From: Escherichia coli
GTDB lineage: Bacteria > Pseudomonadota > Gammaproteobacteria > Enterobacterales > Enterobacteriaceae
Length of the DNA stretch: 60,038 nt
Reading direction: 5' to 3' (one strand)
Assembly: GCF_003991155.1 (NCBI RefSeq)
Contig: NZ_CP031296.1
This document shows positions 6,001 to 9,000 of this stretch, piece after piece. The position numbers were made by a program. Within the stretch, counting starts at the first letter, position 1. Every line of letters begins with the position of its first letter.

Positions 6001-9000
6001 TATGGGGGGGATTCCCCCCATATCAGGAGGATAAATGAAAGTTCTTATTGGTAATATAAATATTGATAATTATCATATGCTGTCTGCATTAGCTGGGATT
6101 GCGGGATTTGACAGGAGCATTGAGTTTACATGTGAAATATCAGCAAGTATCGAAATTATGGAGGATGATTTCGTAAATAAAGCTGGTATATTAAAGATGT
6201 TAGATGAATTTATTGAAAATGATTTTTCAATAAAGCTCGTCTAGAAAATACTTGATAATAGGTCATTTGTGACCTATTATTAATGCATTGAGAGGGGATG
6301 GTCCCCAATCGCCAAAGCCGCTCAGCGGCAGGAGTTAAACATGAAACAATCTACTTTTCCTGCTATCGTCTCTACAACTGGTCATGTGTTTTCTGTTGTG
6401 CGCGTGACGCTTTGCACAATTTGCCTTAAACATGAAAAAACAGGCGAGGCTTATGTCGTCATTTTTACAGACTGCCATAATATCCGTGATTATAAAAAAG
6501 GCGTTGTTCCGGTTCTTGGGGAGCTTTATCAGGAAGATGTCGATTTGATTACCGGAAAAAGTTAAAAGAAAGGGGCTATATGCCCCTTTACTGTTAAAAG
6601 GGGAGACTATCTCAATATGAAGATAAGAAAAGGTGACAGACAATATTATCTGAATAAAGAAGGTGATACGTTTCATCTGGTGAAGCGAGTAAAAACTTTT
6701 TCTAAGTCTGCGACTTTAGGAAAAACGAAAGCAACGGTGAAAACTGTTGCCGATCTTGTTTTTCATGAGAAGGCATTCGACACTATCGACTTTGCCAGCG
6801 ACGGATTAAGAGAGAATGATAAAGAAATTGTTTCTATGATGATTCAGGAAATGAGTGAGGGAAAAAATGCCAAATGAAAACACACCAGAAAACATTAAAC
6901 GTCTGCGGCAAAAAATTGGCCTGACACAGAAAGAATGTGCCGAAATATTTAGCATGAGTCCGCGTACCTGGCGTCGCAAAGAAGAACCTGTCGGAACTGC
7001 AAGCGGTACAGCACTTACACCAGTAGAGTTTAAATTTCTTCTGCTTTTAGCTGGAGAACACCCTGATTATGTACTTTGTAAAAGGAATAAAAAGAATTCT
7101 GATTCTGGAAGTAATTAAGGAATATTAAGATGAAAATAGAATTAACGTATGACGAAATCACGGAATAAGCTACAAAAACCATAACTGAATTTATGGCTGG
7201 ACTTAATAGCCCCAGTTGCATTGAACAATGAGCAATTGCGCCCGTAGCTCGCTGACGCTCACACGCGCAGTACAGCGCCCCGCCCTGCTGCAATGCACCA
7301 GGACGGCGTAAACTCGCTGGCGCTCGCGCTAACTGCGGCATTCTGCGGCGCAAATCAGCATGATCATGGCCTGTTGGTCTGTTCTGGCTTTGCAGGGCGA
7401 AGGGATGGCCCTGTGCATCCTGGTATGTTCGTCAGCGGCTGCGCCGCGCTTCGGGGCGATGTGGCCCCGCTGCTCCCTGGTATTTTCTTTCGCCCCTTCC
7501 ATGCCCTGTCGGGCATTACATGAATGTAACTATATGTATTTGATAGCGTTTTTTTTGAAGAATGGAGGGAAAAATACTTGATAATAGGTCAGTTCTGACC
7601 TATTATAAACACATCGGGAGGGGATGGTCCCCAACCACCAAAGCCGCTCAGCGGCAGGAGCATGAAAATGCATTTCACAACTTTTCTAAAAAAACATTTC
7701 GATATAGAAAAAGTCGTTGGTACTTCTGATTCTGGAAATGATACCGAATCTATTTATGTTTATGAAAAAGGAAATGATTGCGAACCGTTGTTTATTCTGC
7801 ATGAATCCTGGCTAAATGCAGAAATTAAAAAGTGTGGGGTATGGACTATTGGCAATATATATTCCACATTGGAACACGGAAAAGAATATTCTGAACAGGA
7901 ACTAATAAAAATGATTAAGGAGGGTAAAGTAATCAGCAAATACTAATTTGGGGTTGGTAACAGGCTGTGGGGCAGCCTGTTACCAAATGACAGATGCATC
8001 TTTGGAGATTCTCAAATGTCAGTATGTGAAATGATAGAGCTTGCAAACCGCATTGTAAATGGGGAACCTGTAAAAACACCCGCGATAGAAGCATGGATTA
8101 TTAGCGAAATCATTTGGTGGGCGCATAACCGGGATAATGCTTTAGTTTGAGTCATATATGGGGAGAGTGTCATGCTCTCCCTTTCTTATTGGGTAGCGCG
8201 TTGTATTACATAGTTAGCTTTACGTTGTAAAGATTTTATTGTCTTTACAGTGTGGTGCGTTTTCCGGCGGTTGCGCTGCGCTTAGGGGGATGTGGCCTCG
8301 CTGCTCCCTGGTATTTTCTTTCACCCTTCTATCTGATAACTTTTCTTGAAAGAGGCTGGGGTTTTATGAAACATTTAAAATATAAAGGATATTTAGGTAC
8401 AGTTGAGCCGGATTTTGAAAATAATATCCTGCATGGAAAGCTGGCATTTATTCGAGATCTGGTGACTTTTGAGGCAGAAACATTAGCTGACCTGGAACGG
8501 GAATTTAAAACATCGGTTGATTTGTATTTACAGTCCTGTGTGGAGGACGGAAAGGAGCCTGACGCGCCCTTTAAAGGTGTGTTTAACGTCAGGCTTGATC
8601 CAGAGCTAGGCACTGGAAAAAGAAGTCATTAATCATCGCGCAGGGGCTTAATCGCCCCTTTTTGTTGCTCGCTGGCGTTGGTGTTTTCTGGTATTACGAT
8701 GTAGTGTGTTGTATTTACAAGTAATGATTTACGTTGTATTACGATGTATACTCTTTAATTGCTTGCAATCTCTTTTCACGTTCGTTGCTTTGTTCAGCCT
8801 TTTTCAGTTCACTGAATATGTACTCTTCATCTTTACCCGTGAGTTTTGAACCGGAGAGCAAGCGATTAACAACTTTACGTCGAATTGTGGGGTAATCTTT
8901 GGTTTGAGCGAGTATGGACAATATGCGGTCACTGCTAAGAATCTGGCCTTTCCCTGATTCTACATAATGTAGAAAAAATGCGATTGCTGACACGCCCAAA

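Follow-up and report, generated by a model that had tools for sequence, protein, structure and literature searches.

What is a gene for a HicB-type antitoxin doing in the leading region of a conjugative resistance plasmid when no toxin gene stands beside it? The window analysed here is a 60,038-nucleotide stretch of Escherichia coli DNA (NCBI RefSeq assembly GCF_003991155.1, contig NZ_CP031296.1). It represents an IncI2 conjugative resistance plasmid, and is 100% identical to many E. coli plasmids of about 60 kb typed as IncI2 / MOBP / MPF_T. A sequence-only reading had drawn attention to a HicB-like gene at 8366-8632, lying behind a partial leader element, and had suggested that its product could serve, early in the recipient, as a spare antitoxin or a decoy. 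Is this a dedicated gene, or is it what remains of one? And if the latter, might the remains still do something for the plasmid?

The reading frame and its protein domains

The ORF at 8366-8632 is present as described, running on the + strand from an ATG to a TAA and encoding 88 residues. It matches Pfam PF05534 (HicB) with E=1.6e-8 and 34.8 bits, against a curated cut-off of 21, which by the Pfam threshold places it in the HicB family of COG4226 type and RHH class. The match covers profile positions 1-29 of 51 only, and an NCBIfam scan of the 88-residue ORF gave no match. Full-length database relatives have 110-115 residues, and their alignment with the window protein ends at residue 81; the closest of them, with 115 residues and 98% identity, has the C-terminus ...FNVRLDPELHRRVAEMAMEEDLSLNAFVNKALEKEVSHHRAGA, whereas the window counterpart ends ...FNVRLDPELGTGKRSH followed by a stop. 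We note that this truncation had been overlooked in the sequence-only reading: homology ends at codon 81, and the last seven codons are a frameshift product.

Residues 1-81 of the relic, as we shall call it, are 96% identical to the intact HicB of an IncI2 module (HicB-1; tblastn E=1e-50) and 90% identical to the IncX4 HicB-1. At the DNA level the N-domain coding sequence is 97% identical to the IncI2 allele and 87-88% identical to the IncX4 allele. Database annotation of the ORF varies. Some RefSeq records label it 'HicB family antitoxin' (WP_000681608.1), and recent RefSeq/PGAP records treat it as a pseudogene, 'incomplete; missing C-terminus', spanning exactly codons 1-81. In some Shigella records a longer in-frame ORF is called from an upstream GTG (8252-8632, 126 residues); we rejected this start because the extension crosses the leader fragment and the hicA relic described below in the wrong frame.

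Which parts of the protein are kept? An AF2 model of a full-length HicB-1 homologue (53-sequence alignment; pLDDT 91.7) has N-domain strands at 4-37 and a helix at 40-60, then a linker with the RHH strand, and finally helices at 79-91 and 96-113. These two RHH helices are exactly the part missing from the window, where a 62-nt deletion and frameshift leave only the beta-strand segment of the C-terminal RHH DNA-binding/dimerisation domain. For residues ~1-60, Foldseek gives probabilities of 0.99-1.00, and the top PDB fold matches are all HicB proteins (B. pseudomallei 6G26, 6G1N and 6G1C; Y. pestis 4P78; TTHA0281 2DSY), with an rmsd of 1.7 Å over 61 columns for 6G1C. In a profile search, residues ~61-113 match RHH repressors (CopG, Omega, ORF56; E=0.002-0.03), plus engineered-protein noise. 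A PDB sequence search with the single full-length HicB-1 gave just a marginal RHH match, and the fold search was needed to reach the HicB structures. The N-terminal HicB fold, a partial RNase H / dsRBD-like fold, is thus predicted for the N-domain. As residues 1-81 are all present in the window, the relic retains the whole toxin-binding domain, with DNA binding and RHH dimerisation gone.

In HicB it is the N-domain that neutralises the toxin; N-terminal domains bind HicA by themselves in solved complexes such as Y. pestis HicA3-HicB3 (4P78), whose structure was determined in the absence of the C-domain (review PMC11594946). The N-domain constructs 4P78 and 6G1C share their fold over residues ~1-60 with the relic, and like it are devoid of the DNA-binding domain. 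They differ in having only 11-18% sequence identity to the relic and in being laboratory truncations rather than a natural frameshift product; the relic, unlike them, carries a foreign tail of seven residues. One might ask whether short HicB-like database proteins (78-95 residues) form a natural class consisting of the N-domain only. We discarded this idea, as their tails prove to be the frameshifted normal C-terminus, which indicates independent decay or assembly errors. Elsewhere in this HicB family, too, database sequences often carry frameshifts or truncations in that C-terminal part, as is typical of decay.

Two deletions in a hicAB operon

The DNA was aligned with three references: a Salmonella contig (L002), now recognised as carrying an IncX4-type hicAB, and the IncI2 plasmids NZ_LC511662 (L005) and NZ_CP024139 (L006). 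At the same site L005 has a palindromic repeat, a leader fragment, then a promoter, hicA, hicB and the same terminator as the window. The intact promoter is a consensus one (TTGACA-17-TATAAT, L005 2937-2965); hicA encodes 82 residues, matches PF07927, and overlaps through ATGA with a hicB of 115 residues. With this intact operon, hicAB-1, as the template, the features of the window are as follows.

8160-8182, + strand: terminator-like hairpin at the end of the upstream gene block; 10-bp stem with 5 GC pairs, then TTCTTATT
8206-8253, + strand: palindrome-bearing repeat (CTTTACGTTGTAAAG ... TGTCTTTACAGTGT), with about six copies in all, found in the leading region only
~8252-8328, + strand: leader fragment, an internal ~77 nt of a GC-rich repeat of ~430 nt, matching the copies at 5239-5672 and 7236-7670
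8344/8345, + strand: junction of a 286-nt deletion; missing is L005 2939-3224, the hicAB-1 promoter and hicA codons 1-75
8345-8369, + strand: 25-nt relic of the hicA-1 3' end; last 7 codons (LKEAGVL) and a TGA stop overlapping the hicB ATG (ATGA)
8366-8608, + strand: hicB-1 codons 1-81; complete N-terminal HicA-binding domain, linker, RHH beta-strand segment and first 3 residues of RHH helix 1
8607/8608, + strand: junction of a 62-nt internal deletion; missing is L005 3488-3549, hicB codons 82-102, with a frameshift
8609-8632, + strand: frameshift tail GTGKRSH and new TAA stop; 7 codons, homologous to no HicB
8610-8651, + strand: original final 13 hicB-1 codons and stop (ALEKEVINHRAGA, stop), out of frame; tblastn match to residues 103-115 at 85% identity
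8642-8667, + strand: original hicAB-1 intrinsic terminator, kept; AGGGGC-TTAATC-GCCCCT plus a T-run
9479-10123, + strand: intact second module, hicA-2 (9479-9661) and hicB-2 (9686-10123), of the hicATB type and not part of the relic

A HicAB module has an adjacent, overlapping hicA upstream of hicB, and its own promoter under autoregulation by the antitoxin. Here the last seven codons and the stop are all that is left of hicA, and the promoter of the intact locus falls inside the 286-nt deletion. Having neither promoter, toxin gene nor RHH helices, the relic is neither a toxin-antitoxin (TA) module nor an autoregulator. The sequence-only reading was right that no hicA adjoins the gene: tblastn with the cognate HicA-1 across the 60-kb window gave nothing save a weak 17-residue match within hicA-2. 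A degraded hicA in the flanks, which that reading had entertained, does exist as the 25-nt 3' remnant, limited though it is to those few terminal codons. The complete hicAB pair said to lie apart from the lone gene is also borne out, as hicA-2 matches PF07927 (E=1.1e-15) and hicB-2 matches PF15919 (E=1.3e-26) in Pfam.

How do these modules relate to known ones? Lin et al. 2025 describe two HicAB subfamilies with less than 26% protein identity between them: hicATB, with an intergenic terminator, as in pHNSHP45, and hicAOB, with overlapping ORFs, mainly on IncX4 plasmids (PMC11878559). The hicATB of pHNSHP45 is the pair at 9479-10123 of the window, and the relic belongs to the hicAOB family. In the intact IncX4 homologue, HicAO is toxic and is neutralised by HicBO (Lin et al. 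2025, PMC11878559). Carriage of hicAOB by the IncX4 plasmids pJIE143 / p14EC007a and by some IncI2 plasmids is described in PMC11878559, which cites Bustamante & Iredell 2019. The relic is a direct derivative of this operon, with the same ATGA overlap, terminator and C-terminal codons, the last out of frame in the relic. It differs in the deletion of promoter and toxin gene, and in the frameshifting 62-nt deletion, which takes the RHH helices. The hicATB pair, on the same strand about 850 bp downstream of the relic, is of the same HicAB superfamily, toxin-first and with an RHH-type antitoxin, but it differs from the relic's family in its antitoxin domain (PF15919 versus PF05534), in showing no significant pairwise similarity, and in having an intergenic terminator in place of overlapping ORFs. 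Lin et al. 2025 surveyed at a minimum query coverage of 90%, and their paper is silent on truncated or orphan copies (PMC11878559).

The distribution of the two deletions was counted over PLSDB records. The 286-nt junction is present in 194 records and the 62-nt junction in 192 (the query for the latter matched over 34/50 nt in intact plasmids versus 50/50 in deletion plasmids); as these near-equal counts indicate, the deletions go together as a pair. The relic itself is found at ≥99% identity in 190 records. R721, the IncI2 archetype, has the same relic sequence as the window and belongs to its deletion lineage. Intact hicAB-1 of the IncI2 type is present in about 147-161 records, and hicAB-1 of the IncX4 type in about 395-450. 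In 172 records, all IncI2, hicAB-2 is kept and the whole site is gone; the gap starts within the leader fragment and stops just short of the membrane-protein gene downstream. Roughly half of the hicATB IncI2 plasmids carry no relic, and plasmids that have hicAB-2 but not the site argue that the relic is dispensable.

Is there a sign of selection on what is left? The N-domain frame is intact throughout the roughly 190 plasmids that carry the relic, R721 included. The backbone is clonal, and the near-invariance of the N-domain may merely reflect its youth. Relic and intact allele differ by 3 non-synonymous and 4 synonymous substitutions, for a dN/dS of 0.2 that rests on just these 7 substitutions. 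We set this ratio aside as a test of selection, as the substitutions are too few and the divergence, much of which may predate the deletions, cannot be separated into parts before and after them. With the IncX4 allele as outgroup, the 3 amino-acid changes that set the relic apart from the intact IncI2 allele can all be placed on the relic's branch.

Orientation, leader fragment and transcription

From ~5.6 to 10.1 kb of the window the genes lie on the + strand and are directed at oriT; mobC, the relaxase gene and the oriT-side repeats are at about 12.5-13.3 kb, with mobC/oriT at about 12.5-12.9 kb. In the leading regions of F and IncI1, such an orientation is expected for genes read off the incoming T-strand. 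By analogy, the relic ORF would be expected to lie on the strand transcribed from the incoming T-strand. From what signal, then, might it be transcribed?

A partial copy of a GC-rich leader element does lie upstream of the lone gene, as had been proposed: ~8252-8328 matches an internal stretch of the two ~430-nt copies, and a core of 42 nt (8285-8326) has 93% identity to them. The same fragment also precedes the intact hicAB-1 in sister IncI2 plasmids, which means that it did not arrive as a new signal for expression. Folded as single-stranded DNA, a full copy of the repeat is highly structured (z=-5.2), whereas the remnant reaches -16 kcal/mol with z=-1.55, and 13/200 shuffles were equally good. 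With 77 of ~430 nt left and the long-range pairing partner gone, the remnant does not form the extended stable hairpin in the transferred strand, mimicking a duplex promoter, that characterises Frpo/ssi elements. Nor did an Rfam scan of 4000-13500 (E≤0.1) assign a family to the full repeat, at most a putative Frpo; the one match in that interval, a sub-threshold Burkholderia sRNA inside hicAB-2, was dismissed. A short match of the leader repeat in an IncF-type plasmid (typed IncFIB) was also considered as a link to a known Frpo/ssi; it sits in the colicin M/B/V region, not in the leading region, and is uninformative.

Other signals at the locus are few. The hairpin at 8160-8182 would, if efficient, shield the relic from upstream transcription, and a scan between this hairpin and the ATG found no sigma-70-like site on the + strand. 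There remains the palindromic repeat at 8206-8253. The repeat (CTTTACNNTGTAAAG ... TGTCTTTACANTGT) is restricted to 4.3-9.4 kb of the window, with palindrome occurrences well above expectation (16 matches vs 2.1 expected; 8 vs 2.1), and it also lies upstream of the intact operon in L005. It is possibly an operator or promoter element, and is the sole candidate source of transcription for the relic. Early expression from the leader element, in any case, has no support: the fragment predates the deletions, precedes an operon with its own promoter and folds unremarkably as single-stranded DNA, and the scan gave no sigma-70-like site.

Decay, possible cross-immunity and a mirror-image relic

What evolutionary steps might account for the relic? 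The ancestral site, still seen in about 150 sister IncI2 plasmids, held the leader fragment, a sigma-70 promoter, hicA of 82 residues, the overlapping hicB of 115 residues and the terminator. In the lineage of the window and R721, the 286-nt deletion took the promoter and toxin gene, and the 62-nt deletion shifted the hicB frame and took both RHH helices. Presumably the toxin was lost first while the antitoxin stayed, as this would be the only viable order of TA decay; with the toxin gone, the antitoxin would have been free to degenerate. Its product would now be made at a low level, if at all. If translated, it would be a free HicA-binding domain of 88 residues, which could bind HicAO-type toxins and probably not the plasmid's own HicAT.

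The relic is left with neither a promoter of its own nor its cognate toxin; the upstream gene to which its translation was coupled and the DNA-binding/RHH dimerisation module are gone as well. Its family is a known one, NCBI already marks the ORF as partial, and the relic is an ordinary product of TA-module decay. We favour, with a probability of about 70%, the explanation that it is a pseudogene with no selected function, left over from a decayed hicAOB operon. Comparison with the sister IncI2 plasmids does not support a dedicated gene for a spare antitoxin or decoy expressed early; it shows what two deletions have left of an ordinary hicA-hicB operon.

Two other explanations give the relic a function. 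One, which builds on the original proposal, makes it a spare antitoxin or a decoy against the HicA of the plasmid itself (9479-9661) or against chromosomal HicA toxins, produced early in the recipient with the leader as a single-strand promoter. The orientation towards oriT/mobC is as one would expect for T-strand transcription, if F and IncI1 are a guide, and the full leader copies have the pronounced structure noted above; but the remnant in front of the relic has lost most of the element together with its pairing partner, and the same fragment fronts an intact operon that has its own promoter. The partners also fit poorly. HicB-1 shows no significant similarity to HicB-2 (E=0.5), and HicA-1 and HicA-2 have only a stretch of 24 residues in common, in keeping with the low identity between the subfamilies, so a back-up role for the plasmid's own pair is unlikely. 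We consider this explanation very improbable as a whole. The other is directed outward. Saavedra De Bast and colleagues reportedly described, in 2008, orphan antitoxins that act as anti-addiction modules. The relic resembles these: it is a toxin-less, antitoxin-derived ORF, it lies in the leading region of a plasmid, and it has homology to TA systems of competitors. It would be retained for its free HicA-binding domain, which would neutralise HicAO of incompatible sister IncI2 plasmids with intact hicAB-1 or of co-circulating IncX4 plasmids, so that cells keeping the plasmid would survive when the competitor is lost or displaced; the upstream palindromic repeat or read-through would supply the transcript.

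Several observations speak for such immunity. Codons 1-81 are complete and close in sequence to both the IncI2 and the IncX4 HicB-1, the HicA-1 toxins that the relic would target in these two groups share 96% identity, and the N-domain is the part that neutralises toxin, with 4P78, solved in its C-domain-less form, among the top fold matches. Experiments have shown hicAB to be a driver of competition between IncI2 plasmids (Lin et al. 2025, PMC11878559), and leading-region orphan antitoxins have been proposed, in general terms, to act against competing elements (Samuel et al. 2024, PMC11541004). Against it, the native promoter is deleted and the scan found no replacement; the 172 IncI2 plasmids with the same hicAB-2 do wholly without the relic; loss of RHH dimerisation may destabilise the protein; and the amino-acid changes have all accumulated on the relic's own branch. 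In experiment hicAOB had merely a weak competitive effect (PMC11878559), which would leave little to defend against. The relic also differs from orphan antitoxins of the anti-addiction kind: two deletions and a frameshift mark it as decayed, and about half of the most closely related plasmids do without it. On balance we think this explanation unlikely, if worth keeping in mind.

One further observation favours immunity. In the other IncI2 lineage there is a reciprocal relic, a HicB-2 N-domain with neither hicA-2 nor RHH. In L005 and L006, the two plasmids examined, both with intact hicAB-1, the second module has lost its promoter and hicA-2, and what is left of hicB-2 stops after residue 94, so that the RHH is missing. 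The hicB-2 relic junction is present in 142 PLSDB records, near the number of IncI2 plasmids with intact hicAB-1, and both relics lie immediately downstream of a copy of the palindromic repeat. Such mirror-image relics hint at selection to keep the toxin-binding domains. Could there be two complementary kinds of IncI2 plasmid, each combining a live hicAB with a relic of the other kind's, stripped of promoter, toxin and DNA-binding domain, and could the repeat express these relics as cross-immunity genes? We think this rather unlikely.

As a pseudogene, the relic would have little importance beyond annotation. IncI2 and IncX4 plasmids are the main vehicles of mcr-1, and TA surveys of mcr-1 plasmids should not count the relic as a module. 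Many records still name it 'HicB family antitoxin'. The reciprocal decay provides a clean natural series, intact, relic and absent, for studying the loss of TA systems from plasmids. If the relic is active, immunity to a rival's toxin could help to explain the displacement of plasmid types after the colistin ban. If the relics are expressed from the repeat, each IncI2 lineage would hold an antidote to the toxin of the other, and the relic of the window, not its mirror image, would be an antidote to the IncX4 hicAO toxin as well. Were this true, a natural 'disarmament' by antitoxin domains would be shaping the competition among incompatible resistance plasmids.

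Reciprocal decay of the second hicAB module

In the two intact-hicAB-1 IncI2 plasmids that were compared, L005 (NZ_LC511662) and L006 (NZ_CP024139), the state of the second module, hicAB-2, is one of reciprocal decay. The hicAB-2 promoter and hicA are deleted in both, and hicB-2 is reduced in both to a 99-aa N-domain ORF, WP_034169410.1 (relic region L005 4337-4664, compared with window 9396-10123). This ORF is far more diverged than its surroundings, as the protein identity is only 84% and the flanks are about 96-97% identical in DNA. The hicAB-2 deletion junction is found in 142 PLSDB records.

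Surroundings of the hicB-1 relic

The spot immediately 5' of the relic, the truncated hicB-1 ORF, is an insertion target. L007 (NZ_CP135225) has just upstream of the relic, at 1499-2707, a gene whose 402-aa product bears no annotation beyond 'transposase', and R721 (1-1864) carries a Tn7-like element with TnsA/TnsB genes, the end of which lies about 200 bp upstream of the relic. On the other side, window 8683-8745 spans the interval from the relic terminator to the 3' end of a minus-strand membrane-protein gene, and contains two copies of GTATTACGATGTA, one on either side of TTTACA/TTTACG motifs. The breakpoint of the complete-deletion plasmids, represented by L008 (AP026498), falls within this interval. 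Two further features follow:

8739-9182, minus strand: conserved predicted membrane protein, 147 aa, between the two hicAB sites
9297-9324: 28-nt repeat, with a second occurrence at 2527-2554

The membrane protein has no Pfam or NCBIfam family. Its gene and hicAB-2 are divergently transcribed, and the intergenic region between them holds two copies of the palindromic repeat described below and the 28-nt repeat.

Repeated elements of the leading region

5239-5672 and 7236-7670: GC-rich leader repeat, about 430 nt, full copies
6245-6339 and 8252-8328: GC-rich leader repeat, partial copies
6855-7118, plus strand: antitoxin-like gene without a toxin, the second such case; 87-aa protein
4361, 5084, 5129, 5154, 7070, 8219, 9225, 9250 and 9364: TTTAC-NN-TGTAAA matches

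Successive small genes of the window are each preceded by the leader repeat, which is also carried by IncX4 plasmids (91% identity across the first 283 nt). Its minus strand, presumed to be the transferred one, folds much better than shuffled sequences do (z=-5.2), and an Rfam scan of window 4000-13500 assigned it no family. The repeat is a candidate for a single-strand promoter or for a priming element. Full copy B lies directly downstream of the antitoxin-like gene, whose product carries the HTH domain of Xre-like antitoxins (PF20432, E=6.6e-7) and weakly matches MqsA_antitoxin; no toxin partner is obvious.

The palindrome TTTAC-NN-TGTAAA is strongly over-represented in the window (16 found versus 2.1 expected), is restricted to the leading-region gene block at 4361-9400, and in every case precedes a gene or a copy of the leader, usually partnered by TGTCTTTACANTGT about 25 nt downstream. 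It occurs in L005 too, at about 4290-4330 and 4710-4750. The set looks like the operators of a putative regulator, or parts of promoters.

Mosaic leading regions

L008 has its upstream genes in common with the intact-hicAB-1 lineage (L005) and its hicAB-2 in common with the lineage of the window. By this comparison, the leading regions of IncI2 plasmids are mosaic, which implies that they have been shaped by recombination between IncI2 lineages rather than by simple vertical descent.
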